From the UHGV virus genome UHGV-0140617: a stretch of DNA of 34,960 nt; one strand, written 5' to 3'. The first letter of the stretch is position 1; every line of letters starts with the position of its first letter. Shown here piece after piece: positions 2,225 through 30,205 of the stretch. The notes beneath the pieces were generated by a model, which was not told where the DNA came from, did no database searches, and worked only from the letters and a program-made list of their open reading frames with translations. Source of the DNA: a virus. The position numbers were made by a program, and so were the translations under genes.

Positions 2225-2235
2225 ATCGCGTCCAT

Positions 2236-2258
2236 AAAAAAAGCCACCGTCAGGTGGC
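2236..2258 (-). terminator. Hairpin plus U-tract between I and J (terminator-like on minus strand)
   Basis: Plus-strand A7 run 2236-2242 then gccac(2243-2247)/gtggc(2254-2258) stem; on the minus strand this is a hairpin followed by UUUUUUU. Confidence 0.4.
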
Positions 2259-2277
2259 TTATAGTACGTGGTTTGGT

Positions 2278-2865
2278 TTATTGCTGATCTTCTGCATAAA
2301 TCCCGGCTGAGATAATCGCACCGCCTATTTCCCTCTGTCCGTAAAGCAAAGGAACGGGGTTACCGGATGCCGTAGTATTGACGGGTCCGCCAAACGCATA
2401 GGAAGGCTTATTATCTGGGTCCTGTCGCATCCTCAGACCAGCAACCTGAGGGGAAAGCATTTGCACTACACCACCCACAGCCATAGAACCAGCTGCGGCA
2501 TATAGCGCCATTTGTGTACCTGCTGCCCATCCTATTGGGTTCCACCAGGTAAAAGCCGCAATTGCGGCGGCAGTAACAATTTGAAAGAGGCCAGCCCTTT
2601 TACTGCCGCGTATTACAGGGATAATGCGAAGTTCATCGCCAGGTCCAAGAAGATCAAACTCTTCCTTTCCTATGTTTATTTGGTTTCGGAAGATGACAAA
2701 ATCCAGCCCTTTCGCTCTGGTCTCGCGCAGGTAAGCATCAAAGCCATCAATGGTGTTAGAAAGCGCCCTGAACACTTCGCTGGCAGACGTTAGTGCGCGG
2801 CGATGCGTCCTGCCAAATCGCTGAGCCATTGAGCCGCTGAGTTTGATAACGGTTTTTCTTTCCAT
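2278..2865 (-). CDS. I: Tail assembly protein I
   Basis: 195 aa, hydrophobic Gly/Ala-rich C-terminal half like lambda gpI; 1-nt overlap with K stop; positioned between K and J. Confidence 0.8.
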   Translation of the reverse strand: MERKTVIKLSGSMAQRFGRTHRRALTSASEVFRALSNTIDGFDAYLRETRAKGLDFVIFRNQINIGKEEFDLLGPGDELRIIPVIRGSKRAGLFQIVTAAAIAAFTWWNPIGWAAGTQMALYAAAGSMAVGGVVQMLSPQVAGLRMRQDPDNKPSYAFGGPVNTTASGNPVPLLYGQREIGGAIISAGIYAEDQQ

Positions 2866-3575
2866 TACATCAAATCCTTATAACGCAGAATTTTGATGGT
2901 ACGGTCACGGTAATAACCACCGTAGGGAATACGCTGGCTTAGCTGGCCATACATGTGATGCAGTAGCATGTTGCCATCAAGCAAAATCCCGGCATGGTTC
3001 GGGACGGTGGACTGTACCTGCATGATAACCATGTCACCGGGCTGAGCTGGACCGTCGTACTCACGGAAACCGCATTCCTGCCAGTTGTCCATATAGAGGT
3101 TTTCACCCTGCTCCCACCAGTGCCGATCTACGCTGTAGTTGGGCAGTTCAATGCCGTGTTCGATGCGGAAATAGTCCATAATGAGAGACCAGCAGTCTGC
3201 ATGCCCGAGTACAAACTGGCGCCCTGTGAGGGGACGGTCTCCGCGAGGCATGACGGTGCGAATGTCGCCCTCAGGCCACGATGCAATAATCCAGGGCAGT
3301 TCCGTGGCATCACACATCAGCATGTCGAGTTCACTCGGCTGGGTTGTTGCCCCGTCGCCGGGGTGACTGTGGACGATCGCCACCACAGTTCCCTGCTCTT
3401 CGGCGGCCGCATAATCCTCAGGATTGAGTTCAAATTGCTCAGTCGGCGACTCAGCATTATTTTTGCAGGGGATGTATTTCTCCACCCGCCCCTTCTGAAT
3501 AACCACGCCACAGCACTCCTCGGGGAAGGATGCGGCGGCATGCGCCAGAATGGCGCTAACTGTTTTGTCGCGCAT
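2865..3575 (-). CDS. K: Tail assembly protein K (JAB/MPN plus NlpC/P60-like)
   Basis: 236 aa; HSHP metal-binding motif (AIVHSHPGD) and Cys/His peptidase-like C-terminal region typical of lambda gpK; gene order L-K-I. Confidence 0.8.
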   Translation of the reverse strand: MRDKTVSAILAHAAASFPEECCGVVIQKGRVEKYIPCKNNAESPTEQFELNPEDYAAAEEQGTVVAIVHSHPGDGATTQPSELDMLMCDATELPWIIASWPEGDIRTVMPRGDRPLTGRQFVLGHADCWSLIMDYFRIEHGIELPNYSVDRHWWEQGENLYMDNWQECGFREYDGPAQPGDMVIMQVQSTVPNHAGILLDGNMLLHHMYGQLSQRIPYGGYYRDRTIKILRYKDLM

Positions 3576-3577
3576 GA

Positions 3578-4336
3578 TTATCCTCTCAGAAGTGAAGCGC
3601 CGGGGAACCCGCCATAATCCAGCTGTTCATTCTCTCCGAAGCGAGGTTTACAGCCCGTTGACAGCAATCCGGAGCAAACATCCTGTGAAGGATCGTCCAC
3701 CCGATTGCCGTCTTTATCGAACCAGCCGTTTTGCCCGGCGTAGGTGCAGCCGTTCCCGGTTTTGTACCAGCCACGCATGCACCACGTGCACATTGGCTGA
3801 ATTTGCCGGGTCGGAATGAGTTGCCCGCGCAGATCGGCTGGACTGGAAAGCTCAAATTCTACAGTTTCATCGTCTGATCCTGATTTACGGTCGATGTAAT
3901 AAACCTGTTTGCGCTCCTCGTTGGGATTCGCAGTCTGGTTCCCATCAGGGAAGTTTCTGGCGTCCAGATAGTGTGCGAAGGTGTCATGGATGATCACCTT
4001 TGCTTTAGCCATCCCCTGAAATCTTCGGCACAGCGCGCCAATCGTGCCGCTGATGTTTGCAACGGTGAGAGACGGTCGTGAACACTGGCCGTCACTGCTG
4101 ACAGATATGCCGGTCAGTTCATACGGCCACGCGCCATACTCCTGCCCCTGCCACCACACCGACTTCGGCTCAAGTTTTGACTCGTCGCCGCCTGCGGCGA
4201 TGATTTCCGCCTCGGTATGCGGGATTGTCTCGTTGTGAAAGCGAAGAATACCTGCACCGAAAGCTGAGCCGTCCACCTCGATCAGGCGGACGCGCTTACC
4301 CGGCTCCAGTTTCTGGACATCAGATGAAATACTCAT
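3578..4336 (-). CDS. L: Minor tail protein L
   Basis: Start taken at internal ATG 4334-4336 (MSISSDVQKLEPGKRVRLIEVDG...), giving lambda gpL-like length; C-terminal Cys cluster (CTWCMRGW...C...C) as in lambda L; ATGA overlap with M stop. Confidence 0.8.
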   Translation of the reverse strand: MSISSDVQKLEPGKRVRLIEVDGSAFGAGILRFHNETIPHTEAEIIAAGGDESKLEPKSVWWQGQEYGAWPYELTGISVSSDGQCSRPSLTVANISGTIGALCRRFQGMAKAKVIIHDTFAHYLDARNFPDGNQTANPNEERKQVYYIDRKSGSDDETVEFELSSPADLRGQLIPTRQIQPMCTWCMRGWYKTGNGCTYAGQNGWFDKDGNRVDDPSQDVCSGLLSTGCKPRFGENEQLDYGGFPGASLLRG

Positions 4337-4671
4337 GGGTGGTATGCCTGTGTGAATGTGCTGCTGAGGGTGTATTTTTTGTTGCCGTGTGTAGATATCT
4401 GAAAGGATTCCGCGCGCCATAAGCCTGATGGCTCAAGCGGCGACTTCCAGATAAATGATTTCCACCCGGCATGTCTGTTGAGAAAGTTTTTAATGGCCTG
4501 AATGTAAGCCTCATCGCCGGTAAAACTCACGCTCCATTGAGATGTTACCGGGTTGATACCATCCCCTGCCACCTGCGTATAGCCATCGCCAAACTGTGCC
4601 TTTCGGGTACGAAAATTTGTATCAACCTGAGAGGCAACCTTTGGGCACCAGCTGAAGGTTTCTACTGTCAT
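4333..4671 (-). CDS. M: Minor tail protein M
   Basis: Start at ATG 4669-4671 (MTVETFSWCPKV...); FGDGYTQ and GWKSF motifs match lambda gpM (FGDGYSQ, GGWKSF); 2 nt after tape measure stop. Confidence 0.8.
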   Translation of the reverse strand: MTVETFSWCPKVASQVDTNFRTRKAQFGDGYTQVAGDGINPVTSQWSVSFTGDEAYIQAIKNFLNRHAGWKSFIWKSPLEPSGLWRAESFQISTHGNKKYTLSSTFTQAYHP

Positions 4672-4673
4672 GG

Positions 4674-7600
4674 TTAAACTCCCTTGATTAATCGCCACAG
4701 AGGCGAGCCCGGCATGCTGGCCTGTTCGTTAATGACGCCAGTGATGGCATCCTTAAGCTGCCTGCCTGCTGCTCCAGCAGTACCCTGACTGGCCGCCTGG
4801 GATGATCCGCCCTGAATATTGATATCGCCGAAGTTAACTGAAGGCATACCACCGGAGACCTGAGGAGTGCCAACAGCCCGAACGCCAAGCGAACCATCAG
4901 CGGCGCGCGTAAGCGGCATAATGGCTTCCGGACCAGCTTCGGCAAAAACCCCTGCACCTTTGGCAAAAGCAAACAGCTGAGGCGTCTGAAAAACGCCATT
5001 GCTGTAAGCGCTCAGGGACGGAGAGTCGTAAACATTACCCTTCGCATTAAAGGTAAAGTTCGCGCCAGCATTCTGAATAGCGGTACCGCTGCTGGCGGTA
5101 GCGGCTGACGAGGCACCAAAACTGAACAGTGAACCAATTGAGCTAACGCCATTAGCAACAGCCATATTCACCAGAACGTTCTGGATAATCTTCAGTACGC
5201 TGACGCCCCAGTCCTTCCAGCTATCAACGTTGCCATTGAGCATGTCGGTGATCGTGGTGACCGCGCCACCCATAGCCTGCTTCATGCCGTCAGCGGCCAT
5301 GGAAGAATAATCAGTAGCTTCGTCCACCCAGTTCGCATAACCCTCAGACAGTCCCGTCATCCAGTCGTCACGCTGCGCATCAGAAGCTGCGTAATATCCC
5401 TCCTGGTCGCGCAGGCGCTCATCGAGATAGCGCTTATTAAGTGCCAGTCCCTGCTGATAGAACGTCTCATCGATTTCACCAGCCTGACGCTGGCGGAGAA
5501 GATCGGTATTCTTCTGCTCGAACTCCTTACGCAGATTGAACTGCTCCTGAAGTCTTTCACGGAACCTGGTACCCTGCCCGTAACCCAGCAGTTGCCCTTC
5601 ATTAGCTGCTCGGGCGCTGGCGTTACTGTCGGCGAGGTTGGCTTCGTAATTTCGCAGTTGCTCACGTAATTTAACCTGGTCAATCAGCGCAGCATTCTGC
5701 AATAACGTCTTTTTCTGGGCTTCTGTCAGAGAAGCAAGCTCGCCCTGGCTGACCTGGTATTTAACCTTCGCCAGTTCAGTATTCTGGCCTTGCAGGGCAA
5801 TCTGCTCTTTTTGCTGTTTGATCAGCTTGTCATAGGCATCAGCTGTTTTTTCCGCCTCGGATTTCCCGCCCTTATGGCGGCTTGAGTCACGAATAGCTTG
5901 CAACTGCCTGGCTGACTCAACTTCCATGCTGACATACTTCTCACGCCAACCAGCAGGGAGATTAAGGTCAGATGCATCGAATTCCGCCTGCTTGCGGGTT
6001 TTGTCCAATCCCTTAAGACCGGACAACTCAAGCTGTCGCTGCGCCTTGTCTATAGCTTGCTGCTGCTTATTATCAAGTGCAGGAAGTACAGGCCCTGCAT
6101 ATTTTGGTGGGGACACTGCTGTAGACTGTCTGGAAACCTTGTTCAGACGGTCATACATCTCTGTAAGAGAACTTACGGCGCCAGCCATTTCTACTGTTTT
6201 ATTTATAGCCTGATCAGTTATGTCGTTTATTAACTGTTGTGTTTGCTTTCTTTTATTGAGCATTTGCTCAAGTCGGCCTTCTTCAACCGCAAGTTCTGAA
6301 GCAAACTCTGCTGATTTCTCAACCGCATCGTTATACAGCCATGTTCCATCTGAAGCAGAATTGGCTGCTAATTTTGCGTTATAAAGTTGATTGGATAATT
6401 CAGCAACTTTCTGCTTCTGCTGTTCAATCGCACTATTTTGAGCATCCAGTGAAATATTCGCCTGTCCAAGGTTGGCGGATATCTGCGTCTGAGACATTGA
6501 TTTCAGATTATCTCGTACCTGCTCGATTGTGTCCGCATATTGGATTGCAGATTCCCTGGCTTGTTCTTGGCGTTGATACATCGTGTACCACGCCCCAGCA
6601 CCCAACATTAAAATTCCTGGCAAACCACCAACTAACGACAAAAGCCCCGTAGCGCCAGACTTGAATAAATTCATTACCGATGTTGATCGGTTGAGTGCTT
6701 CTTGCGACGCTGATACTGCTTTATTTGACTGAACGAGAGTGGAATTGGCGGCTATCATTTCACGCCGTTTGGCAATAGAATTTTGTGTAGCTGTCGCTTC
6801 TGCATTTGTGTTTTTTGCAAGTTCCAACTCGGATAGCGAGAGCTGATAAGCACGCTCGGCAGCAATCGCATCTGCTGCCGCCTTTCGTTGTGATTGGGTA
6901 GCAGATTCAGCCCTTGCAGATGCGAGCGCAATTTCGTTCTTTCTGGCATCTATTAATTGCGCCGTTTGGTTCCCAAGATCGCCAAACATCCCTCCAAGAT
7001 AGCGAGCTCCACCTATTGCAGCCAAAGCTCCGGCAGCCGTAGCCACAGTGTCGATATTGTCAGAAACTGTATTCAATACAGCAACAAGAGCACTTGTCGC
7101 ACCAGTAGCTTCATTAGCTCCACCTACCCATGCCATGAAAGCATTTTCGACTTTCGTCGTGGCAGCAGAAACGGTCTGCGGCATTGCCTCAAATTCACCA
7201 CGCATAGTGCCAAGTTGACTTATCAGGGCCGGGACAACTTTATCTGCGGTTAGCATCCCCTGATCGGCCATTGCCTTCAGATCTTTACGAGCTACACCCA
7301 TCCCAGCGGCCAGCGCACGGATAACTCGATCACCGTTTTCGTTAACAGAGTTGAATTCCTCGCCCCGCAGAACGCCCTGAGCTAATGCCTGACTAAACTG
7401 GGTGATAACAGAACTTGCCTCTGCCGTGCTGGCGCCGGATAGCTTTAGTCCAGTAGAAATGGCCTCGGTTACATCCAGAACTTGCTGCGAACTGTATCCG
7501 TATTCACGCATTGATGCGGCGGAACGCGCAAAAAGACTCGCATTATCAGAGAAGGCGGTTCCGGTTCGTTGGCTAATATCCATCAGCGCCCGCTGAGACT

Positions 7601-7928
7601 CCGTGAAATCATCAGACGATTGGGAAGCCTGCTTTAGCCTGGCATTAACAGAGCTCCATTCATCGGCCAGCGATATAAGATGACCAGTCGCAAATGCTCC
7701 AGCAAATGCACCTGCCATTCCCAGCGCTGAGGCCTTCGCGGTGTTTATTTGACTAGTTACCTCAGCTAAGGCACGCTGAGTTTCACGCGAAGCTGCGGCC
7801 GCTTGGCGTCCTCCAGTCTGCATTACCCGGTAATAGTCATTCCCCATTCTTGAAGCACGAGAAATTTCAGACTGAAATGACTGAGAGTTTGCAGATATTT
7901 TGATGATCAGTTCGCGCAACGTAGCCAT
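4674..7928 (-). CDS. H: Tail tape measure protein
   Basis: About 1084 aa, Ala/Gln-rich coiled-coil-like sequence, position between chaperones and M. Start placed at second ATG (7926-7928, MATLREL) because GGGTGA precedes it, whereas the first ATG (7938-7940) directly abuts a U-tract. Confidence 0.85.
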   Translation of the reverse strand: MATLRELIIKISANSQSFQSEISRASRMGNDYYRVMQTGGRQAAAASRETQRALAEVTSQINTAKASALGMAGAFAGAFATGHLISLADEWSSVNARLKQASQSSDDFTESQRALMDISQRTGTAFSDNASLFARSAASMREYGYSSQQVLDVTEAISTGLKLSGASTAEASSVITQFSQALAQGVLRGEEFNSVNENGDRVIRALAAGMGVARKDLKAMADQGMLTADKVVPALISQLGTMRGEFEAMPQTVSAATTKVENAFMAWVGGANEATGATSALVAVLNTVSDNIDTVATAAGALAAIGGARYLGGMFGDLGNQTAQLIDARKNEIALASARAESATQSQRKAAADAIAAERAYQLSLSELELAKNTNAEATATQNSIAKRREMIAANSTLVQSNKAVSASQEALNRSTSVMNLFKSGATGLLSLVGGLPGILMLGAGAWYTMYQRQEQARESAIQYADTIEQVRDNLKSMSQTQISANLGQANISLDAQNSAIEQQKQKVAELSNQLYNAKLAANSASDGTWLYNDAVEKSAEFASELAVEEGRLEQMLNKRKQTQQLINDITDQAINKTVEMAGAVSSLTEMYDRLNKVSRQSTAVSPPKYAGPVLPALDNKQQQAIDKAQRQLELSGLKGLDKTRKQAEFDASDLNLPAGWREKYVSMEVESARQLQAIRDSSRHKGGKSEAEKTADAYDKLIKQQKEQIALQGQNTELAKVKYQVSQGELASLTEAQKKTLLQNAALIDQVKLREQLRNYEANLADSNASARAANEGQLLGYGQGTRFRERLQEQFNLRKEFEQKNTDLLRQRQAGEIDETFYQQGLALNKRYLDERLRDQEGYYAASDAQRDDWMTGLSEGYANWVDEATDYSSMAADGMKQAMGGAVTTITDMLNGNVDSWKDWGVSVLKIIQNVLVNMAVANGVSSIGSLFSFGASSAATASSGTAIQNAGANFTFNAKGNVYDSPSLSAYSNGVFQTPQLFAFAKGAGVFAEAGPEAIMPLTRAADGSLGVRAVGTPQVSGGMPSVNFGDINIQGGSSQAASQGTAGAAGRQLKDAITGVINEQASMPGSPLWRLIKGV

Positions 7929-7940
7929 ATTTTCACCCAT

Positions 7941-7964
7941 AAAAAAAACCCGCTTGATAGCGGG
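7941..7964 (-). terminator. Intrinsic terminator-like hairpin directly upstream of tape measure start
   Basis: Plus-strand A8 (7941-7948) then cccgc(7949-7953)/gcggg(7960-7964); minus-strand RNA gives hairpin plus UUUUUUUU. Confidence 0.5.
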
Positions 7965-7971
7965 TCGTGAG

Positions 7972-8160
7972 TTATAAACTGTCTTTTCTTTTGTGAGCGA
8001 CTTGTATTAATAAATCTATTTGCGCATCTTGTTTTTTATTTATCTCTTTAAGGGCTTCAACTTGTTCATTTGCCCTTGTGCTAAACCGTATTAAATAAAA
8101 AATCACAATTAGATTTATCAACCAGCCGAATATTCCAAACACTACTACCAGTGGTTCCAT
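7972..8160 (-). CDS. Small single-pass membrane protein (moron) between T and tape measure
   Basis: 62 aa from ATG 8158-8160 (MEPLVVVFGIFGWLINLIVIFYLIRF... then charged helical tail); strong SD AAGGAGG 5 nt upstream; AT-rich relative to flanks; followed by terminator 7941-7964. Confidence 0.6.
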   Translation of the reverse strand: MEPLVVVFGIFGWLINLIVIFYLIRFSTRANEQVEALKEINKKQDAQIDLLIQVAHKRKDSL

Positions 8161-8217
8161 AACGCCTCCTTTTCTTAAGGAAAGAGCGTATCGCCACATT
8201 GATGACATGTGAAGCAA

Positions 8218-8888
8218 TTATTGTGTCGCAGCTGTAAGAGCAGCCTCAAGCCCTGCAAACGGGTCCTTCGGTGCTGATTGCTCATCACCACCCCAGCGCA
8301 GGATCGCATCGTCCAGCGGTACTTTTGCCCCCTGCGAGCCGTAGATGGCAGAGACGAGCTGGGCTGCCTGAATGTCACCACGGATATCGCCAACCGGACT
8401 TTGCCTGTCGTACTCAATCCACATCAGAAGCTCGCTTGCCGTCATATTCTGCCGAAGCTCTGAGAGCGTGCGCCCCATCCGGAGCGCAAGCGACATCAGA
8501 AACTTTACGCCGGGGGTTGAGACTTTTCCCGCGCTTCGTCCGCATTGTTGATCAGGTCAAGCGCCTGTTTGAGCAGGCGTGAATGGACGGGGCCGTAGAT
8601 TTCACGCACCTGCTCTTCTTCGTCTACGCTGAATACCGGCTGCTTATCGGTGTCACACAGAACGTCAATGAAGAGCACCACGTCAGCGCAAAGATTACGG
8701 TGTGCCTTTTCCGATACCGACACATTTTCATCATCAGTACCCGCTTTCACCACCTCCTGCCAGCGCAGCCAGGCTTCACCTGACGGCTCACGCAGAACCA
8801 CTTTGACGCCCTCCCACTCAGGAACGGCGACCGTCTTATGACGAAATCCCGACATCTTAGCCAGGGCGAGATTTTTAATATTCTTCAT
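8218..8888 (-). CDS. GT: Tail assembly chaperone GT fusion (predicted -1 programmed frameshift product)
   Basis: ORF 8218..8496 (MSLALRMGRTLSEL...) is in the -1 frame relative to G and open back through the G 3' end; slippery-like run CGGGAAAAG (sense) at 8523-8530, about 20 nt before the G stop. Confidence 0.55.
8505..8888 (-). CDS. G: Tail assembly chaperone G
   Basis: 127 aa acidic protein between major tail protein and tape measure; downstream T-frame ORF lies in the -1 frame. Confidence 0.7.
   Translation of the reverse strand: MKNIKNLALAKMSGFRHKTVAVPEWEGVKVVLREPSGEAWLRWQEVVKAGTDDENVSVSEKAHRNLCADVVLFIDVLCDTDKQPVFSVDEEEQVREIYGPVHSRLLKQALDLINNADEAREKSQPPA
8523..8530 (-). other. Candidate -1 frameshift slippery site (GGGAAAAG) for G to GT
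   Basis: Sense sequence GCG CGG GAA AAG TCT in the G frame; the -1 frame (GGA AAA) is open into the T ORF. Confidence 0.4.
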
Positions 8889-8896
8889 GCGACCTC

Positions 8897-9340
8897 TCAG
8901 GAGCCAGACTCGATGTTTTCAGGCTTACCTTTCAGGCGCAGGGAGAACGTTGCCGCAACTACGCCGTTGGTACCGGAAGACCAGGTGTGCTGGCGGATTT
9001 CAGCCAGGAACTTAAAGCCCTTGCCGGACGGGAAGATAACCTGGAAAGCGTAGGTCGTATCGTTGTCATACGCTTCACGCAAGGCGTCCTGCGCCGGGTT
9101 TTTGTAGAAGTTGCCGGACAGAGAGATTTCTGACGGAGAAGGCAGGCCGTTGATGTTCTCCTGCTCGGTAGAGCAAAGCGTGGTTACGTCGATATCCTGC
9201 TTCTGGCCACCAGTGAACTGAATTTCTTTGATGGTGCAACTCAGATCGAGGAAGGTTGCGGTATCCATCGTTTCTTTGGTGGCTGGCGCAGAGGAAATAA
9301 GGATCTTCGTCAGCTGCGATTTTTCATAAAGTGCAGACAT
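8897..9340 (-). CDS. V: Major tail (tube) protein
   Basis: 147 aa, position immediately upstream of chaperones; SD AGGAGA before ATG 9338-9340. Confidence 0.7.
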   Translation of the reverse strand: MSALYEKSQLTKILISSAPATKETMDTATFLDLSCTIKEIQFTGGQKQDIDVTTLCSTEQENINGLPSPSEISLSGNFYKNPAQDALREAYDNDTTYAFQVIFPSGKGFKFLAEIRQHTWSSGTNGVVAATFSLRLKGKPENIESGS

Positions 9341-9354
9341 AGCTGTCTCCTGGT

Positions 9355-9379
9355 AAAAGAAAACCCGCCATTAAGCGGG
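9355..9379 (-). terminator. Terminator-like hairpin between tail-terminator gene and major tail gene
   Basis: cccgc(9364-9368)/gcggg(9375-9379) with minus-strand UUUUCUUUU (plus 9355-9363). Confidence 0.4.
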
Positions 9380-9399
9380 TTCGTTGGGTGAATGATTTA

Positions 9400-9747
9400 T
9401 CAAGGTGTAACTTTAAAATCCAGGGTGGCACGGTATAGCCGATAATATGGCTCGTATCCGGGGATTTTTACCACCTCTGTAGGGTTTAACGACTTAAGCG
9501 AAGCAAGCGCCAAATCTCTCAGAGATCGTGATTCAGTGATCGTTGTGGCATACACATCGACCTGAACGGAAACCCTGCTCTCTGCCTGGCCACACATCAC
9601 GTCAGCGGAAACATCATCGACGATGGAAAAGATAATCCAGGGTGGAGTGACCGACGGTTTCCCGTCACTACCTAATGGCGCAACATAGGGATATACCCGT
9701 CCTTCTGCCAGGGGAGAAAGCAAGGCGTAGATATTATCTTCATTCAC
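9400..9747 (-). CDS. Putative tail terminator / tail completion protein
   Basis: 115 aa; GTG start 9745-9747 overlapping the upstream stop (GTGA); position between head-tail joining genes and major tail gene. Confidence 0.5.
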   Translation of the reverse strand: MNEDNIYALLSPLAEGRVYPYVAPLGSDGKPSVTPPWIIFSIVDDVSADVMCGQAESRVSVQVDVYATTITESRSLRDLALASLKSLNPTEVVKIPGYEPYYRLYRATLDFKVTP

Positions 9748-10193
9748 TTGCTCAATACCTCATCAATAGCCTGACTCATCCTGGCAATGGCGACGCTGGC
9801 GGCCTCTTCCTCGCGCGTATCGTAAGCGGGTCGCACAAACGGATGTGCAGGCATGTTCGCGGTGCCCATTTCTACGAATCGCCAGTAAAAGGCGTTTCTC
9901 GGGTTATTCGCCTTCATCGTGTTATCGCTGTTGCCGGTGCGCGGGTTAACGCCACGAATATGGACGCCGGAAGAAATTTCCCCGCGGCGACGGCTTTTTT
10001 GGGTCACCACCACCACGTTTTTTTTCAGTTTCCCGGTGCGCACCGGTGCACGGGCGATCACTTCTTCCTTAAGCACTTCGGCGCCGGCGCGCGTGGCATC
10101 ACGCAGAACCTTGTTGTTTTCAGCGCGGCTAAGCGCCTCCAGGTCTTTTGCTATGTCATTTAACCCAGAAAAATCGAGGCTCGTCTCAATCAT
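9744..10193 (-). CDS. HK97 gp10-family head-tail joining protein
   Basis: Motif WRFVEMGT...HPFVRPA typical of that family; start at ATG 10191-10193 overlapping the upstream stop (ATGA). Confidence 0.65.
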   Translation of the reverse strand: MIETSLDFSGLNDIAKDLEALSRAENNKVLRDATRAGAEVLKEEVIARAPVRTGKLKKNVVVVTQKSRRRGEISSGVHIRGVNPRTGNSDNTMKANNPRNAFYWRFVEMGTANMPAHPFVRPAYDTREEEAASVAIARMSQAIDEVLSK

Positions 10194-10534
10194 TTTTCGG
10201 TCCCCTGTTTGCAAAGAATTTCAAGCTGGGTCCCTTTAGGGTCAGGTATGGGCGGCCCTACCACATTCAACGTTTGGCCCTTATATGGACCAGAGAGCAC
10301 CTTCAACCTGGAGGTAGCATAAATACTCGATCCGCTTTTAAATCTCACCCATACCCTTATTGTTGCTTCAGCATGCTCAGCACCAGATGCCATCATTTCC
10401 CGCCCGCTTCTTCCTTTCACTTCAGCAGAGATGGTTTTCCCATCTTCCCATTTTTCAACCGGCTGGCCGGAAGGCGTTCTGGAGGTTGTGAAGTTCTGAA
10501 TGGTGACCCTGTGCCGTAATCGTCCTGCCTGCAT
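10190..10534 (-). CDS. Head closure / head-tail adaptor protein (SPP1 gp16-like)
   Basis: 114 aa starting MQAGRLRHRVTIQ..., characteristic of head-tail adaptor proteins; strong SD AGGAGGTGAT. Confidence 0.7.
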   Translation of the reverse strand: MQAGRLRHRVTIQNFTTSRTPSGQPVEKWEDGKTISAEVKGRSGREMMASGAEHAEATIRVWVRFKSGSSIYATSRLKVLSGPYKGQTLNVVGPPIPDPKGTQLEILCKQGTEK

Positions 10535-23350: not shown

Positions 23351-24709
23351 TCAGGCTTTTGCATACCGACGCGGTTGTGATTTTTGCTGCGAGGCTGATT
23401 TTGATTTCGCTTCTTCCTGGTCAATCGGCAGAAAATGCCCGTTGTAGAAACGGCGGTACACGGTTCCAAGAACGCCGTTACGCTGTTTGGTGATGTTAAT
23501 TTCCGCGATCCCTTTCGCCGGCGATTCGGGGTTATACACTTCATCGCGATAGAGCATCATGATGATGTCAGCATCCGCCTCAATTTCGCCGGAGTTCTTC
23601 AGGTCAGAGTTCATGGGACGTTTATTCGGTCGGGATTCCACGCCTCTGGAAAGCTGGCTCAGGGCCAGAACGGGAGTGCGGTTTGTTTTGGCAAGTCGCT
23701 TTAATCCCTTCGACAGTTCACCCACCGCGAGGTCATAGCGTGCCGTGCTCTGGATCTTAATGAGTAACAGATAATCGATAACCACCAGCGCGGTTTCTGG
23801 ATGAGAAATCTGATGACTGGTTGCCGTTTGCTCGATCTGCTCAAGCGTCAGATCTGTGGCATCGACCATCCAGATATTGCGCCCGGTAAGATGCCCGATA
23901 CCTGTAGATAACCTTGCCCAGTCTTCATCTTCAAACTTCGCGGCTGCTTTGAGCCTGGACACTGACATACCACCAGCAGCAGATACCATTCGCTCGCCAA
24001 TCTGGATGTTGGCCATCTCCATGCTGAAAAACAGTACGCCATGCCCCTGCTCTGATACCTTATCGATAATGTCCAGTGCCAGCTCGGTTTTCCCCATCGA
24101 CGGACGAGCCGCGATGAAGACCAGATCTGTCGGTTCAATGCCGCCGGTTTTAGCGTCCAGTTCTTCAATGCCGGTCATCAGCGGTTTGGCCTCTTCCAGC
24201 CCCTGATTTCTTGCATCTACCCGGTCAATTACTGCAGGTAAGATTTCATCAATATGCACAGGTTGAACGGTATCAGGAGTGAGTGAAATTGAAGCCATGG
24301 CCTCCTGCGCGGCTTTCAACGCTTCGACTGCGTTTTCACCATTGGCAGCATTGCGAATGCCAGCCAACGCTGTCTCGATTACAGCCTCGGCGTCACGAAC
24401 GGCAGCATTACGTTCCAGTGTGGAAACGTAATACGTCAGAGCTGATTTAGCCCATGCGATACGGCTTGACTCGAGTATCGTTGCGCTGTGTTCTGGCATG
24501 ATCTCACACAGCAACAGCGGATCTATCACTCCGGTCCCCCGAGCCTGACGACAAATGCCGGAATATATTTCACGGTACTGACGGACAGAGAATGCGCTCG
24601 CCGGCATACGGGAAAGAATGCCCAGAACCTCAGGATCGGTATTGCGCAGAAAAATCGCGCCAATTACCGCACCTTCCAGATCATTATTTTTCCATACCGG
24701 AGTCATCAT
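23351..24709 (-). CDS. Replicative DNA helicase (DnaB family)
   Basis: 452 aa; Walker A ARPSMGKT, and RecA-like core motifs. Confidence 0.9.
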   Translation of the reverse strand: MMTPVWKNNDLEGAVIGAIFLRNTDPEVLGILSRMPASAFSVRQYREIYSGICRQARGTGVIDPLLLCEIMPEHSATILESSRIAWAKSALTYYVSTLERNAAVRDAEAVIETALAGIRNAANGENAVEALKAAQEAMASISLTPDTVQPVHIDEILPAVIDRVDARNQGLEEAKPLMTGIEELDAKTGGIEPTDLVFIAARPSMGKTELALDIIDKVSEQGHGVLFFSMEMANIQIGERMVSAAGGMSVSRLKAAAKFEDEDWARLSTGIGHLTGRNIWMVDATDLTLEQIEQTATSHQISHPETALVVIDYLLLIKIQSTARYDLAVGELSKGLKRLAKTNRTPVLALSQLSRGVESRPNKRPMNSDLKNSGEIEADADIIMMLYRDEVYNPESPAKGIAEINITKQRNGVLGTVYRRFYNGHFLPIDQEEAKSKSASQQKSQPRRYAKA

Positions 24710-25587
24710 GCGGTTACCCCTGCAGCAATTGCGCGATAGCTTTCCCAGCCAAATGCCAGGCGGTTTCGTCCACCATCGGTAACCCTGTCCACGATGCGCT
24801 CACCAATGGACTCTTTCAGTTGCTCAAAGGTCAGGTTGCTGATCAGGATTGTCGGAAGTACGCTCTCGTAACGGGCATTAATAACCTCCTGCAGGATGGT
24901 CATTTCCGTCGGACTACCAAATTGCACGCCCACCTCGTCGATAATCAGCAGATCCAGTGATGCGAAACGCTCGATAACGTCTTCCTCGGTACTGTCAGCA
25001 CCATGGCGCCACGTGTTTTTTACGGCACGGGTCAGGCGCATAACATCGGTGATTTGCACACTGGCCAGATACTCACGAACAATGCTCTTTGCCATCGATA
25101 CCGCCAGATGGTTCTTTCCTGTCCCGCAGTTCCCGGTCATCACCAGCCCCGTTCCTGCGTTAAGACGCTCCGACCAGCTGTTGACGTAGCGCTGGCAGGC
25201 TGCAAGGTTTTTTGCGGCACCCTGATTAACCGCCTGATAATTACTAAACTCACAGCCCTCAAATCGGCGGGCGATCCCGACGTTGTCCAGCAGGTCAGAT
25301 ACCTGCAACGCACGCAGCCCGGAATCGACTGCCGCCAGCTCATCGCGCACGCACCCCGGGCACAGGGAATGTTTAACATTTTCGGTACCACGAAACGCTT
25401 TACCAGTGAGCGACATGCGCTCATAGTCGCCATGTTTTTCGCACACTACGGTGTGGACTTCGCCTGACTCCCAACTTCCCCACTGCCACGGTTTTTTATG
25501 TTCTACAGCGAACGCCAGTTCCTCGCGAAGTCCTTCGCGTTTCGCCAGTAGTGAATCCCTTTCTTCGCGTTGTTTGATGTTTAGCAT
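24706..25587 (-). CDS. Helicase loader, DnaC/IstB-like AAA+ ATPase
   Basis: Walker A GNCGTGKNHLA, Walker B LLIIDEVG; start at ATG 25585-25587 with SD; overlaps the DnaB-like start. Confidence 0.85.
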   Translation of the reverse strand: MLNIKQREERDSLLAKREGLREELAFAVEHKKPWQWGSWESGEVHTVVCEKHGDYERMSLTGKAFRGTENVKHSLCPGCVRDELAAVDSGLRALQVSDLLDNVGIARRFEGCEFSNYQAVNQGAAKNLAACQRYVNSWSERLNAGTGLVMTGNCGTGKNHLAVSMAKSIVREYLASVQITDVMRLTRAVKNTWRHGADSTEEDVIERFASLDLLIIDEVGVQFGSPTEMTILQEVINARYESVLPTILISNLTFEQLKESIGERIVDRVTDGGRNRLAFGWESYRAIAAGVTA

Positions 25588-25601
25588 TGTGTTTCCCCTT
25601 G

Positions 25602-26498
25602 TCACCAGTTGCAGTCTGTTTGTCCGTAATCCTGTTCACTGAAGCCAGATACCGGAAGCACATTGCGACGCCCACCTCCGGGAGCTGATGGAGTTTGCCA
25701 GGCTTCTTCGAAATGGCGATCGGGCCCAAAGAACGTTGCCGCCTGTTTGACGTATTCAGTACCAAGCTTGCCCGTCGTGCGGATGTAGGCCGCGTAGCGC
25801 TGCACGCCCGCCAGCAGCTCTGATGCCGTAGCGCCGTCGGCGATGCGAGCCTTCCAGTGTTTGTAAGCCGTTGCTTTCGGATTGCCACCAGCGCGTTTTG
25901 GGTATGCTTGCCAGGCGGCTTCGAACTCTGGAGAGTATTCCTGTCGCGCTGCTGGTTTCGTACCACTGGTTTTTCCAGATGATTTACCACTTCCGGAAAT
26001 GGCTGTCGGTGTAGCGGCGCCAGCCGATGCACCAAGAGTGTTTTTAATCTCTGTAGTAGTCTTTGTTGTAGTAACCATTAGAGAGCGGGCGTTTTTCCCC
26101 TCATCCATCGGTGCATCCTGCACTTGTCGATCAGGGCAACTTGCCCCGTTCGATGAGGGCACCTGTTCCGCATCATTAAGCAACTCGCAATCATGATTGA
26201 TGGTGTAGTAATTTGTCCGGTCATGTAGGGACTTATTGAGCTGCTCAACATCGAGACATCCCTGTTTGACGAGTGATGTAAAAGCGCGTTTAACTGTATC
26301 TGCTGACCAGAACGGGAATTGTTTTACCCACGACTCATAGCTGTTGAACACCCAGCGGCGACCAGCATGGATAACTCCCTGCTCTTTGTCGTTAATCCAG
26401 TAGTTAACCTGCTGCAATACGATCGCTTCGTTCAGACCGATGCGCATAGCAAGTTCAGGGTTGATGACCAGAGGGCGAAAATTAAAAAGCATGCTCAT
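25602..26498 (-). CDS. Replication initiator / replisome organiser (O-like)
   Basis: 298 aa; N-terminal replisome-organiser-like domain, low-complexity Thr/Ser/Gly linker, C-terminal domain; position upstream of the loader. Confidence 0.75.
   Translation of the reverse strand: MSMLFNFRPLVINPELAMRIGLNEAIVLQQVNYWINDKEQGVIHAGRRWVFNSYESWVKQFPFWSADTVKRAFTSLVKQGCLDVEQLNKSLHDRTNYYTINHDCELLNDAEQVPSSNGASCPDRQVQDAPMDEGKNARSLMVTTTKTTTEIKNTLGASAGAATPTAISGSGKSSGKTSGTKPAARQEYSPEFEAAWQAYPKRAGGNPKATAYKHWKARIADGATASELLAGVQRYAAYIRTTGKLGTEYVKQAATFFGPDRHFEEAWQTPSAPGGGRRNVLPVSGFSEQDYGQTDCNW
26098..26159. repeat. Iteron-like repeats (GATnAGGG) within the O-like gene - candidate origin
   Basis: tcgatcaggg (26127-26136) and tcgatgaggg (26150-26159) direct repeats 23 bp apart, inverted copy ccctcatcca (26098-26107), palindrome gtgcatcctgcac (26111-26123). 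Confidence 0.4.
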
Positions 26499-27379
26499 GC
26501 TGCACCCGCTAACTCAGTATCGTGAGTAAACTTGCCATCCCAGCGCTTCTTCATCGGAAGATGCCCCTTGAGATAGTGTCGATAAATCCATACCGCGCCT
26601 TTGCGCAGCAGGATTGGCTTGAAGGTGTCGCGCATCTCACCGTCGTCCTGTTCCACCTGCCCTGGCCGTTCGGTGAGGTATTGATCACGCGCATAGTGAT
26701 GAACCCGCCACAGTGGACGCCTGGCCTTTGGCTGGTCGTCGTAAAGCCAGTTATGATCAGCCAGAAACGCGTTAACCTGCTGGACGTTGACGCCGTTCAG
26801 TTGCTTACAGAACTGGCAAGGGGACATTCCCGGTTGGAACAGGTTTTCCAGGTGTTCGATGTACTGCGCCTGACGGTGAACGTATCCGATAGCTTTGTTC
26901 TTCGCTTCATACTCGTCCGCCCATGCGCGCGCAGCAGCCGCCGGGTCGTTGAAGTCTGGCAGACTGCTGCTGACTGGCGCCAGCTTGCCGGTACGGAAGT
27001 CGAGAAAGGTCTGGTTAACCTGCAAACGAAACGACGGTGAGATCCACCCGGCGTACTCGATGGCCAGCAGTTCGTGGGCGAACGTGCCCGGCGCAATGCC
27101 GCCATTCACGGTGTCGATTGGTTTTTGAGCAGAGTGTAAATTTACATTCTGGTTCTCTTTCAATAAATTACGCTTAAGCTCTTCAATGAGTTCTTTCGTG
27201 CTTTTTCGGCGTAACCATTGGCTCGGAGATTTATCCTCACCCGCTCCGCTCGCCTTGTGCAAAGCGTTCAGGTTAAATCGCCCGGCGGCATCCGTCGTGA
27301 TTTCAACGCCTGCAATAACAGGCAGGCTTTCAACATTAATGCTTGAAACGTTCGGATGTTTATTGGTATTGTTTTTCAT
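26495..27379 (-). CDS. KilA-N domain protein with antirepressor (ANT/KilAC)-like C-terminus
   Basis: About 294 aa from ATG 27377-27379 (MKNNTNKH...); KilA-N hallmark FNLNALHKASGAGEDKSPSQWLR. Confidence 0.7.
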   Translation of the reverse strand: MKNNTNKHPNVSSINVESLPVIAGVEITTDAAGRFNLNALHKASGAGEDKSPSQWLRRKSTKELIEELKRNLLKENQNVNLHSAQKPIDTVNGGIAPGTFAHELLAIEYAGWISPSFRLQVNQTFLDFRTGKLAPVSSSLPDFNDPAAAARAWADEYEAKNKAIGYVHRQAQYIEHLENLFQPGMSPCQFCKQLNGVNVQQVNAFLADHNWLYDDQPKARRPLWRVHHYARDQYLTERPGQVEQDDGEMRDTFKPILLRKGAVWIYRHYLKGHLPMKKRWDGKFTHDTELAGAA

Positions 27380-27398
27380 GGAATGATTCCTCGCAGTA

Positions 27399-27683
27399 TT
27401 ATTCCGCAGATATGCAAACGAAGTCAGAACAGGCCGGGTTGGCGCTCTCCGTTCCTTCCCGGCCTTTTCTTTGCCTTGCGTTCTGCTGTTGTCGTCTGCC
27501 CAATAGCCCACTGTCGCGCACGGAAAAGACAATCAGCGAACATGCTTCCCTTCCGGCTGGACTGAGAGCATCGCCGGTAATAATCAACACCATGCTCTGC
27601 CCCCCCCTGGCGACTTCTGCCGGAAAACCTTCGCCAGCCAGCGCCTCGGTGATGTGCTTTTTGATGAATTCTTCCGGTGACAT
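27399..27683 (-). CDS. Hypothetical protein in cII position (reading frame uncertain because of G8 tract)
   Basis: ATG 27681-27683 lies 1 nt after the cro stop (coupled); contains a G8 homopolymer (plus C8 at 27600-27607); downstream sequence is low complexity. Confidence 0.35.
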   Translation of the reverse strand: MSPEEFIKKHITEALAGEGFPAEVARGGQSMVLIITGDALSPAGREACSLIVFSVRDSGLLGRRQQQNARQRKGREGTESANPACSDFVCISAE

Positions 27684-27684
27684 G

Positions 27685-27900
27685 TCAAGCCTTTACTGAT
27701 GGGTGAGGGAAAATTTCTTCGATAAACACCTTCCGGTCTGACGTACTCAAAGCGGATGCGATGAGATGGCATGTCTCAATATCTGGAACTCTCCGACCAG
27801 ATTCGTAGTGACAAATGGAGCTTTGTGTATGGCCTATGCTCTTCGCCAGCTCGCATTGAGTTAACCCACTGGCAATACGCATATTTTTAAGATTACTCAT
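27685..27900 (-). CDS. cro: Cro-like HTH regulator
   Basis: 71 aa XRE-type helix-turn-helix (ASGLTQCELAKSIGHTQSSICHYESGRR); divergent from the repressor gene across an operator region. Confidence 0.75.
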   Translation of the reverse strand: MSNLKNMRIASGLTQCELAKSIGHTQSSICHYESGRRVPDIETCHLIASALSTSDRKVFIEEIFPHPSVKA

Positions 27901-27924
27901 TTTAATCCCCCGTTACTCAAGGAG

Positions 27925-28005
27925 ATATTACACATTGTATTTGAAATCAGCAAGAAAATATTACATTATGTGCATTGAAACTTTATCACATACTGTAATA
28001 TTATG
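27925..28005. promoter_or_regulatory. Immunity operator/promoter region (OR-like) with divergent promoters
   Basis: ATATTACA at 27925-27932 and 27958-27965, inverted TGTAATAT at 27994-28001; minus-strand promoter TTGCTG-N17-TAATAT (plus 27948-27953 / 27925-27930) for cro; plus-strand TTGAAA (27975-27980) and TATTAT/TAATAT near 27996-28004 for cI. Confidence 0.55.
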
Positions 28006-28010
28006 AGCCT

Positions 28011-28670
28011 ATGAAAACAGAATGGTATGAACTGGCTAAAGCCAGAATGTCTGAAGTGGGGGTTACGCAGGCCCAACTTTCAGAGGAATTGGGTGTTACA
28101 CAAGGTGCTTTGAGCCACTGGCTTAACGGCAGGAGATCGGCTTCGCTTGCTGAAATAGGTTCGATTTTTCGAATCCTTGGCATTGTTGGTGCAACCCTCA
28201 ACATAGATGGTTCATTCACCATCGGACCAGAGCAATTCTCGGCACCTCCTAAACCTCATTATGAATATCCTGTTTTCTCTCACGTTCAGGCAGGTATGTT
28301 TTCTCCAGAGTTCAGAACCTTTACAGAACGCGATGCAGAAGGCTGGGTCAGTACAACCAAAAAAGCCAGTGAACATGCATTCTGGCTTGAGGTTGATGGA
28401 CACTCCATGACAGCCCCAACCGGCTCAAGACCAAGCTTCCCAGCCGGAATGCTCATTCTTGTTGACCCTGAAGAACCAGTTGATCCTGGAGATTTCTGTA
28501 TCGCCAGACTTGGCGGGGATGAATTCACTTTTAAGAAATTGATTAAAGATAGTGGACAGGTCTTTCTTCAGCCGTTAAACCCACAGTTTCCAATGATACC
28601 CTGCAACGAGCATTGCAGAGTCGTTGGCAAGGTGGTCGCATCACAATGGCCTGAAGAGACATTCGGATAA
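28011..28670 (+). CDS. cI: CI-like repressor (HTH plus S24 LexA-like peptidase domain)
   Basis: 219 aa; N-terminal HTH ([23 protein letters not shown]), Ala-Gly cleavage site (VQAGMF), catalytic Ser (VDGHSMT) and Lys (FKKL); no SD upstream, consistent with a leaderless transcript. Confidence 0.85.
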
Positions 28671-29223: not shown

Positions 29224-29520
29224 ATGCAGATGAATATTACCGTCAAAAGTGAAGTCTTAAATAACAAGAGCCATTCAGTTAATCAGGATGACGACATTCT
29301 TTATATAAACAAGGCACACAAAACAGCAGAGTGCGCCAATAAATACGCGCATGAGCTACGTACAGAGTTTTTCCAGTTACTGATGCCAGCAATCACGCGT
29401 ACAGATGTGAAGGTAGCAGGAAGATTCACCTCGTTACTTAATGAGCTTTGCTTCATGACCCAAATGACCATGGAGAATTCATCCAAGGGGGGGGGCAATA
29501 ATGACGTTTCTGAAAGATAA
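29224..29520 (+). CDS. Hypothetical protein, apparently truncated at a G9 tract
   Basis: 98 aa as sequenced; with 8 G instead of 9 (29487-29495) the frame continues to TAA 29612-29614, overlapping the next ATG (TAATG). Confidence 0.45.
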   Translation: MQMNITVKSEVLNNKSHSVNQDDDILYINKAHKTAECANKYAHELRTEFFQLLMPAITRTDVKVAGRFTSLLNELCFMTQMTMENSSKGGGNNDVSER

Positions 29521-29613
29521 AGCAGCACACAATACTGCAAAACTTTTTGCCTCTTATGGAAATAGTTATCTGCATATTGCAAACCTTTTTCTGCGCAAGG
29601 CTTACGGGCGGTA

Positions 29614-29976
29614 ATGACAATGAAAAACAATACCATTGAAATTTATCGCCGCCGCGTTGCTATTGCGACATTAAACCGAATGAAGCGCAAGACAGGAGGT
29701 TATTGCCTCTCCGTAAATATGCCCGATAACAATATCCAGGTTATCGAGATTAACGAAGAATCAATGATGAAACTTTTGCTGCGCTTCGAAAAACAGGCTC
29801 GGACTGAATTCAACACAGAAGCGGAAACATTTCTTCGCCAGACGTATATGAAAAGCGTCGATATCAATGAACACACCGAATATCTGACCGAAACCGGAAA
29901 GATGATTGTTGACGAGATTTTTGCGGAATTAATTAAACACGCGAAAGAGAAATACGTATGTGGAGGAATTAACTGA
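29614..29976 (+). CDS. Hypothetical protein
   Basis: 120 aa; stop overlaps next ATG (TGATG). Confidence 0.5.
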   Translation: MTMKNNTIEIYRRRVAIATLNRMKRKTGGYCLSVNMPDNNIQVIEINEESMMKLLLRFEKQARTEFNTEAETFLRQTYMKSVDINEHTEYLTETGKMIVDEIFAELIKHAKEKYVCGGIN

Positions 29977-30205
29977 TGGCCTCACAACAAACAATTATTC
30001 ACGGAATGCAGACCCCCCCCCAGTCCTCAACGTGGATCTGCATGTGCTTCCGGATTTCACCGGACGCGTGGTTCTTTACATCGAAAAAGGGCGTGTGACA
30101 TGCGACCGCCGTCTGCTCGACGACGAACATATTTGCGCACTGGACACTTTTATCGAAATGGCTCGCGAAATGGAGCTACGTCTTGAGGAAATATCGAATG
30201 ACTGA
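29976..30205 (+). pseudogene. Hypothetical gene interrupted by frameshift at C9 tract
   Basis: ATG 29976 with SD GGAGG reads MASQQTIIHGMQTPP then shifts frame at C9 (30013-30021); the downstream frame (...VLNVDLHV...EEISND) ends ATGACTGA-coupled to the next gene; 10 C would restore one ORF of about 76 aa. Confidence 0.5.

Follow-up and report, generated by a model that had tools for sequence, protein, structure and literature searches.

Introduction

Contingency loci built on homopolymers are a familiar feature of Campylobacter, Neisseria and similar bacteria (PMC3025981, PMC5084427). In these loci, and likewise in those of Haemophilus, Helicobacter and Bordetella, a G/C run of about 7-12 nucleotides lies inside an open reading frame (ORF), several such runs occur per genome, the ON and OFF alleles differ by run length only with the ORF otherwise intact, and genomes taken at random are mixed in phase. 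A second group of systems uses homopolymers by transcriptional slippage or mRNA editing, namely the G insertion of paramyxovirus P/V/W, the A9 run of Thermus dnaX, IS elements and Shigella mxiE. Here an early homopolymer gives rise to products with a common N-terminus and alternative C-termini, from a DNA or genome RNA of constant length and with a conserved out-of-frame arrangement. The bacterial examples of transcriptional slippage use A/T runs. Enterobacterales hosts have active mismatch repair and few known contingency loci. To our knowledge, homopolymer phase variation is textbook material for a few host-adapted bacteria and not for temperate phages of Klebsiella, Salmonella, Citrobacter and Enterobacter. 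Our full-text literature search for homopolymer phase variation in phages or prophages of Enterobacterales retrieved no description of G/C tracts that are both conserved and unstable in the early genes of lambdoid phages of this order. The papers on homopolymer variation that were retrieved concerned host genes of Campylobacter and Salmonella.

Here we analysed a viral DNA stretch of 34,960 nucleotides (UHGV virus genome UHGV-0140617), referred to as the window throughout, in which three long G/C runs lie in genes of the early region. We consider it probable, with moderate confidence, that these runs are hypermutable homopolymer switches of the contingency type on accessory early genes and that the window copy is switched OFF.

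Results

The window encodes a CI-like repressor with HTH and Peptidase_S24 domains (28011..28670, plus strand), divergent from a cro-like HTH gene of the ORF list (27685..27900, minus strand; Pfam HTH_3, E 2e-11). The gene under study, designated gene X, occupies 27399..27683 on the minus strand. Its ATG (27683-27681) is located one base past the stop of the cro-like gene. In the rightward early operon, gene X holds the second position, immediately after cro. Directly downstream on the same strand are a KilA-N/ANT-domain gene (26495..27379) and a replication initiator gene (25602..26498), followed by a putative DnaC/IstB-like loader (24706..25605), which was named from Enterobacter prophage synteny. 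The gene order of the Enterobacter prophages (cI, cro, X, KilA-N, replication initiator, IstB-like, DnaB) is the same as in the window. Furthermore, the position of phrog_4439, the family to which gene X belongs, after cro or cII and before KilA-N and the replication genes, holds for the window, the Enterobacter prophages, the Klebsiella phages and the Serratia phage BZS1.

The preliminary description of this DNA had pointed out an 8-nucleotide G/C homopolymer within the ORF adjoining cro, together with two further 9-nucleotide tracts. We confirmed the first: C8 on the plus strand at 27600-27607 (context ctg-CCCCCCCC-tgg) is G8 on the minus coding strand, where this tract 1 forms codons 26-28 (AGG GGG GGG) of gene X, with codons 25-29 reading GCC AGG GGG GGG CAG. 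Both 9-nucleotide tracts are present as well, G9 at 29487-29495 (tract 2, plus strand, near the 3' end of the gene 29224..29520) and C9 at 30013-30021 (tract 3, plus strand, in the gene with the ATG at 29976). These are the only three G/C runs of at least 7 nucleotides in the window; all are located within 2.4 kb and none occurs in the remaining ~32 kb. Compared with mononucleotide shuffles of the window, runs of at least 8 are in excess (3 observed, 0.88 expected), as are runs of at least 9 (2 observed, 0.20 expected), whereas runs of at least 6 are depleted overall (7 observed, 13 expected). Our own Poisson estimates, which are not the output of a tool, are ~0.06 for runs of at least 8 and ~0.02 for runs of at least 9. 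Taken alone, the excess of long G/C runs is just mildly unusual. It is the presence of tract 1 at the same codons in nearly all of ~190 related loci that decisively excludes chance.

Subsequently, the reading frame of gene X was determined by scanning against profiles. The 94-residue ORF as sequenced matches phrog_4439, a 74-position profile of a PHROG family with unknown function, at residues 1-28 of 74 only (E 2.5e-6), that is exactly up to the tract, and its post-tract tail alone gave no family match in the profile scan. We constructed the variants G6 to G10 and scanned three of them. With one G added (G9), an 86-residue protein is encoded that matches phrog_4439 over positions 1-74 of 74 (E 2.1e-31), and the post-tract peptide of this frame alone matches positions 29-74 (E 1.2e-17); the G7 variant encodes a 32-residue stub. 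Since the full phrog_4439 match appears only after the addition of one G, the window locus is a family member in the form of a frameshifted allele. Thus, the as-sequenced frame is broken at the tract and the functional frame has one G more (or two fewer). The in-frame G9 reads AGG GGG GGG GCA (R-G-G-A), and the ON lengths for the window backbone are G9 (or G6/G12). As sequenced, gene X is an OFF allele with 28 native N-terminal and 66 out-of-frame residues. The ON-frame C-terminal part, which needs one G more, spans 27424..27599 on the minus strand (AEHGVDYYRRCSQ…QPGLF, stop at 27424-27426). The earlier doubt about the true frame was hence well founded and is now resolved, the comparison of the frames downstream of the tract having shown that the conserved family continues in the frame with one added G. 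The protein after the tract had also been called low-complexity; this is correct for the translation (…GRRQQQNARQRKGREG…), which is of low complexity because it is read out of frame, but not for the gene product.

A search of the G9 product against a collection of 5.8 billion proteins retrieved 67 relatives, among others from Enterobacter, Salmonella, Citrobacter and Klebsiella, the majority of them with a length of 83-88 residues and the sequence …A-R-G-G-A-E-H-G-V-D-Y-Y-R-R-C-S-Q…. More than 60 in-frame homologs share …ARGGAEHGVDYYRRCSQ…. One in-frame database protein (P0001) is 93% identical to the G9 product, and the database proteins include the in-frame length variants RG-A, RGG-A and RGGG-A. 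Five entries of 88-109 residues (P0063-P0067) are frameshifted chimeras of the same kind as the window ORF. A homolog of the 94-residue form across the tract was therefore found solely as this same frameshifted allele and not in the conserved family.

Gene X had been placed in the cII position, with a possible role of its tract in regulators of the lysis-lysogeny decision and with CII-like and other early regulators named for comparison. A genuine 94-residue CII-like regulator with a low-complexity tail would agree with the location after cro, with the open 94-codon frame and with the identical or similar 88-109-residue ORFs in databases. On the contrary, the Pfam search with the as-sequenced ORF and the in-frame homologs gave no hit at E ≤ 10 beyond noise-level DUF hits, and no CII or HTH match; the tail is without a family match and the conserved family runs on in the other frame. 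Moreover, the Klebsiella phages 5 LV-2017 and ST16-OXA48phi5.1 have a separate annotated CII between cro and the gene X homolog, with O/P after it, which rules out gene X as the single gene of the cII slot. The CII assignment thus had to be abandoned, and we give a genuine 94-residue regulator practically no credence.

To describe the tract in relatives, 110 loci from GenBank phages, GTDB genomes and IMG/VR were collected (25 from GTDB species representatives, 80 from IMG/VR), with the N- and C-terminal halves of gene X each located separately by tblastn. In nearly all of the 110 loci a run of G6-G12 is found at the same codons, a position conserved across Enterobacterales prophages, and only ~5 alleles have the run interrupted. 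The halves are arranged in frame, +1 and -1 in 56, 25 and 28 loci, and the 99 distinct gene sequences divide into 54 in frame and 45 out of frame, counts that are not numbers of independent events, the loci being phylogenetically related. The GTDB set (7 in frame, 17 out) is blind to phase because it was chosen with C-terminal peptides only; one of its loci (L024) is in frame at the tract and broken further downstream. The homologs in GenBank phages have the run at the same codons and are mostly out of frame: Citrobacter phage Omnitron has G8 and needs 9, two Klebsiella phages have G9 and need 8, and Klebsiella phage Kpn_R1 has G7 and needs 8. In frame are EKP1 (G6) as well as Serratia BZS1 and Yersinia YeP1 (G8 in both). 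In a Proteus phage the run sits at a different codon, and the distant members of the family, in phages of Erwinia, Pseudomonas and E. coli, are without it. Positions 27300-28000 were without a Megablast hit in GenBank phages and in complete E. coli genomes, and the gene X family appears to be absent from E. coli save for the distant tract-less relatives.

The run length differs among genes that are otherwise identical. The window backbone was found with G7 (a Citrobacter freundii MAG), G8 (the window) and G10 (two IMG/VR contigs) and never with G9; a metagenome pattern search added one contig (L111), which is the same as the IMG/VR contig L113 and was counted once. Other backbones identical outside the run have lengths of 8/9/10/11, 8/11, 8/10 and 7/8/9. 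In addition, a frame-blind sample was obtained by searching for a DNA pattern with exact flanks taken from the common Klebsiella-type backbone. Its 77 contigs comprise G6 (4), G7 (17), G8 (27), G9 (24), G10 (4) and G11 (1), so that 36% (28/77) are in frame and 64% out, and identical backbones with mixed lengths occur in this sample as well.

The two sister tracts behave similarly. In the tract 2 gene, the G8/G11 frame encodes 129-130 residues ending in …ANLFLRKAYGR, and its stop TAA (29612-29614) overlaps the ATG of the next gene at 29614 (TAATG). Tract-less distant relatives retain the long C-terminus, and on the basis of these two features the 129-residue frame is taken as ON; the G9 of the window, with 98 residues, is OFF. 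Lengths of G6-G11 in 36 relatives result in three alternative C-termini, and no PHROG match was obtained for this gene in any frame. The tract 3 gene starts with an ATG at 29976 that overlaps the upstream stop (TGATG). Its ON frame (C10/C7) encodes a protein of 75-76 residues ending at 30205, of which the C10 form (76 residues) matches phrog_340 across the tract (E 3.5e-23), whereas the C9 of the window leaves a 40-residue stub and is OFF. Among 80 relatives the tract 3 run is mostly interrupted (CCCCCGCCCC), with one subclade having a pure run of C6-C13. In relatives ~99% identical to the window, tract 2 is G7, G8 or G10 (G7-G10 in all relatives of that alignment) and tract 3 is C6 or C8 (C6-C10 overall in that alignment). 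The window is hence OFF at all three tracts, for which the probability by chance is ~0.3. In 649 kb of related loci we counted 140 G/C runs of at least 8, with 93 in gene X and nearly all of the remaining ones at a few recurrent length-variable sites (G8-G14) on the side of the leftward operon. The idea that the three runs form a family of unstable tracts in early-operon genes was therefore upheld, all of them varying among ~99%-identical relatives and in the wider families. Their assignment to lysis-lysogeny regulators was not, as all three tract-bearing genes encode small proteins without assigned function.

Among the other homopolymers of the window, the A/T runs of 7-8 are all located within intact long ORFs. 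One of the runs, T8 at 10018-10025, was considered as a tail-chaperone slippery site and ruled out, being in frame inside an intact 156-residue ORF.

G/C runs of 8-10 nucleotides are prone to error on several sequencing platforms, and shared error-prone chemistry had been proposed as a general cause of the three runs. A sequencing or assembly miscall in the window record would mean that the real tract 1 is G9, that G8 is a homopolymer undercall and that the other two tracts were misread likewise. One added base does restore a perfect family match, and part of the length variation between assemblies must stem from sequencing platforms. However, the A/T runs of 7-8 in the window lie in intact genes, and the corrections to ON are +1 for tract 1, -1 (or +2) for tract 2 and +1 for tract 3; there is no single error direction, since the correction of tract 2 is opposite to those of tracts 1 and 3. 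Furthermore, the other three independent copies of the window backbone are G7, G10 and G10, never the G9 that an undercall requires. A share of 64% out of frame among 77 contigs, with lengths symmetric from 6 to 11 and up to 3 nucleotides apart on identical backbones, exceeds consensus error. Shared chemistry is thus not supported as the general cause, and a miscall in the window record, which we regard as unlikely, cannot account for the population pattern.

The OFF alleles are not decayed. By a change of run length alone, 50 of 53 out-of-frame alleles are restorable to intact ORFs of 75-125 residues. The uncorrected pN/pS ratio is ~0.36-0.40, with pS saturated at ~0.7, and differs neither between ON-ON and OFF-OFF pairs nor between the two parts of the gene that the tract separates. 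These data bear on the simplest degenerative explanation, in which gene X would be an ordinary pseudogene of a defective prophage, undergoing decay after a break that fell on the G run by chance. Decay is frequent among prophage accessory genes, and in the window all three tracts are sites of a broken frame. Nevertheless, the break recurs at the same run in dozens of lineages with the remaining ORF intact and equally constrained, the structural and replication genes of the window are intact long ORFs, and GenBank phage isolates also carry OFF alleles. We therefore consider pseudogene decay very improbable; like the genuine 94-residue CII-like protein, it is contradicted by the data.

Codon usage around the tract was compared in 88 backbones. 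The Gly codon of the tract is GGG in 86 of them, compared with GGC 49, GGA 15, GGG 11 and GGT 10 at another conserved Gly, and the Gln before the tract is encoded by CAG 60 times and never by CAA, compared with 65:20 at another conserved Gln. The subgroup of the window (15 of the 88) has AGG there, a codon that, after AGA, has the fewest counts among the Arg codons elsewhere in gene X, and its following codon begins with G. The codon choice thus preserves the run. Selection on the phase itself left no direct sign, because the ON fraction of about one third equals the expectation under neutral drift. In the frame that is one G short, which is the frame of the window, 91% of the 88 backbones have no stop before the end of the gene, whereas synonymous reshuffling predicts 38%; after clustering at 85% identity, the same holds for 23 of 26 clusters. 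This comparison ignores phylogeny and dinucleotide bias, and its sequences are not independent.

A run preserved by codon choice with its phase at the neutral third is what would also be seen if the gene were recoded, that is if RNA polymerase or the ribosome slipped on the G run and produced several frames from any allele, leaving the DNA length to drift freely. The stop-free alternative frame fits such a two-product design, and a common N-terminus with alternative C-termini behind a homopolymer is a known arrangement (paramyxovirus P/V editing, Thermus dnaX, IS elements). Against recoding, no fixed programmed configuration is seen, the in-frame arrangement and both shifts occurring at similar frequency; a ribosomal frameshift of fixed direction is ruled out, as different alleles need both directions. 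Synonymous divergence is as high downstream of the tract (pS 0.66-0.72) as upstream (0.70-0.74), which gives no indication that the amino acids of the alternative frame are constrained, and the alternative tails of different subfamilies look unrelated. Moreover, the slippage known for bacterial RNA polymerase occurs on A/T runs, and less of it is to be expected on G:C hybrids. On balance, we regard recoding as a serious rival, albeit one of small probability.

With respect to the protein, a profile search with the gene X family revealed no relative among the PDB sequences. An AlphaFold2 model of the ON form (51-sequence alignment, pLDDT 75.8) has helices at residues 3-18, 22-38 and 42-72 with a disordered Lys/Arg-rich tail behind them, and no significant match to a named entry was obtained for the model with Foldseek in the PDB and BFVD. 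The last five residues of the ON frame are QPGLF, a motif present in this frame only, and most of the 88 backbones have Q-x-[G/S]-L-F as their terminal pentapeptide behind the basic flexible tail. The consensus for binding to the beta clamp is QL[SD]LF, and the phage Mu protein MuC, which has the C-terminal QPDLF, binds the clamp and is toxic through it when overexpressed (PMC12867686). The terminus of gene X is close to that of MuC and fits the consensus, although gene X has no homology to MuC. As a lead from the motif, gene X possibly binds the host beta clamp, which would add a host-replication angle to its role. If so, the reason for an on/off switch could be that the gene encodes a costly effector of host replication.

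Discussion

According to the mechanism that we favour, the homopolymer switch, G residues would be gained or lost by slipped-strand mispairing when the G:C run is replicated. As the number of G residues would change in this way, the alleles would flip reversibly between ON and two OFF frames. On the G8 allele of the window, ribosomes would leave the frame after codon 28, read 66 unrelated codons and stop at 27399-27401 to yield the 94-residue product. Tracts 2 and 3 would be elements of the same type in two accessory genes of the leftward operon, both OFF here. We infer that DNA slippage in vivo, and neither sequencing nor transcription, is the source of the length differences. The instability itself, instead of being just tolerated, may be under selection as bet-hedging for an accessory function that is costly or exposed to defences.

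A more general proposal, which we put forward tentatively and with some doubt, is that widespread lambdoid prophages of Enterobacterales carry conserved, selected hypermutable G/C tracts as stochastic switches of early genes, one after cro and several in the leftward operon. The in-frame stops overlap the next starts, so that translational coupling to the genes downstream might also be modulated. If the runs act as stochastic switches, each would turn an accessory early protein on or off, in the case of gene X possibly a protein that binds the beta clamp, and each phage population would be a mix of early-gene repertoires, a form of viral bet-hedging, plausibly against host defences or toxicity, in bacteria that are not noted for contingency loci. 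Phages would then diversify their early programme stochastically, by means of unstable tracts in their early operons that are conserved and protected by codon choice.

A practical consequence concerns annotation, as genes at tract sites are routinely miscalled. In Klebsiella phage 5 LV-2017 no gene is annotated at the tract site, in ST16-OXA48phi5.1 a 52-residue stub is given, and chimeric proteins of 88-109 residues derived from tract sites stand in the databases. Such entries could be corrected by comparing the length of the run with the one that keeps the gene in frame.

Of the systems to which the locus can be compared, lambda CII resembles gene X in map position only, both being encoded by the gene after cro in the rightward operon. 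Gene X has no sequence or domain similarity to CII; instead it has a predicted three-helix domain and a disordered tail, with no HTH call by Pfam or Foldseek, and in Klebsiella phages an annotated CII is encoded in addition to it. The slippage and mRNA editing systems share with gene X the early homopolymer, the common N-terminus and the alternative C-termini, and one alternative frame of gene X is unusually free of stops. In contrast to their fixed template length and conserved out-of-frame arrangement, the DNA length of gene X varies and all three phases occur. The closest resemblance is to the contingency loci. As in these, the length of the repeat in gene X sets the frame, ON and OFF alleles coexist in the population, the OFF ORFs are intact and constrained, and the repeat is kept against synonymous interruption. 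The differences lie in the carrier, here a temperate lambdoid phage of Enterobacterales, and in the genes concerned, which are accessory genes of early operons and not surface or restriction-modification genes.

Results and discussion

Downstream of the G run of gene X, the small early gene after cro (family phrog_4439), one alternative reading frame is open in most of the family backbones compared. The frame entered when the run is one G short, which is the frame of the window copy, was stop-free to the end of the gene in 91% of 88 backbones (gene X sequences outside the run), against the 38% expected from synonymous reshuffling. The stretch concerned lies at 27399-27599 on the minus strand and was compared with its homologous stretch in each backbone. 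In the remaining alternative frame a stop is reached 5-20 codons on. The open frame could reflect dual coding, polarity avoidance or common ancestry.

Proteus phage vB_BPM-V3 also encodes a gene X family member with a G8 run, at gene positions 63-70, and has none at the usual tract site. Because this run occupies other codons (Y-S-G-G, residues 20-23), its sequence position suggests that the tract arose independently. The gene X tract also affects GenBank annotation: no gene is called at the locus in Klebsiella phage 5 LV-2017 (KY271399, 1425-1685), while in ST16-OXA48phi5.1 (MK416013, 1425-1686) the locus is annotated only as a 52-aa C-terminal stub.

Length variation extends to the leftward-operon side, where other recurrent variable-length G runs were found in related loci at homologous sites upstream of gene X, at a distance of about 1.2-3 kb (L007, L032-L034, L040, L041, L049-L056, L063, L067-L070, L081 and L102). 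Examples are cgctctcgtcccgtt-G(9-14)-ctgatac, caccatgttcccttt-G(8-10)-caggag, ttttcgtgtgtaata-G(8-10)-taattt and ctgttagttcgtgct-G(8-10)-taacatt. Loci L067-L070 are identical in gene X, yet carry G11, G12, G12 and G14 at one such site.

Of the two leftward-operon tracts of the window, tract 2 is in the closest relatives (L006, L035 and L036) a composite in which A7 precedes G7-G10 (TCAAAAAAAGGGGGGG…). The window instead reads TCCAAG9 at this site (29480-29495). Directly after tract 3, at the site homologous to window positions 30022-30030, L036 carries a 7-nt direct duplication, CCTCAAC, a second frame-changing indel adjoining the run. Around the tract-2 and tract-3 genes, in-frame stops share bases with the start codons of neighbouring genes: TAATG at 29612-29616 (the in-frame stop of the tract-2 gene), TGATG at 29974-29978 and the ATG at 30198, which falls within the end of the tract-3 gene (30198-30205). 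In the OFF states translation stops about 100 nt early, and the downstream genes should be uncoupled.

The tail region (window 1-10225) shares about 92-95% identity with Enterobacter phage LAU1 and with HK97-like phages (HK106, mEp234), and the immunity and early region had no megablast match among GenBank phages, a pattern typical of lambdoid mosaicism.

In its ON frame, the gene X product ends in QPGLF-stop (27424-27441, minus strand), preceded by a Lys/Arg-rich tail predicted to be disordered. Family-wide (L001-L110), Q-x-[G/S]-L-F forms the C-terminal end in most of the 88 backbones. In sequence, these termini resemble the beta-clamp-binding consensus QL[SD]LF as well as QPDLF, the validated motif in MuC of phage Mu (PMC12867686).
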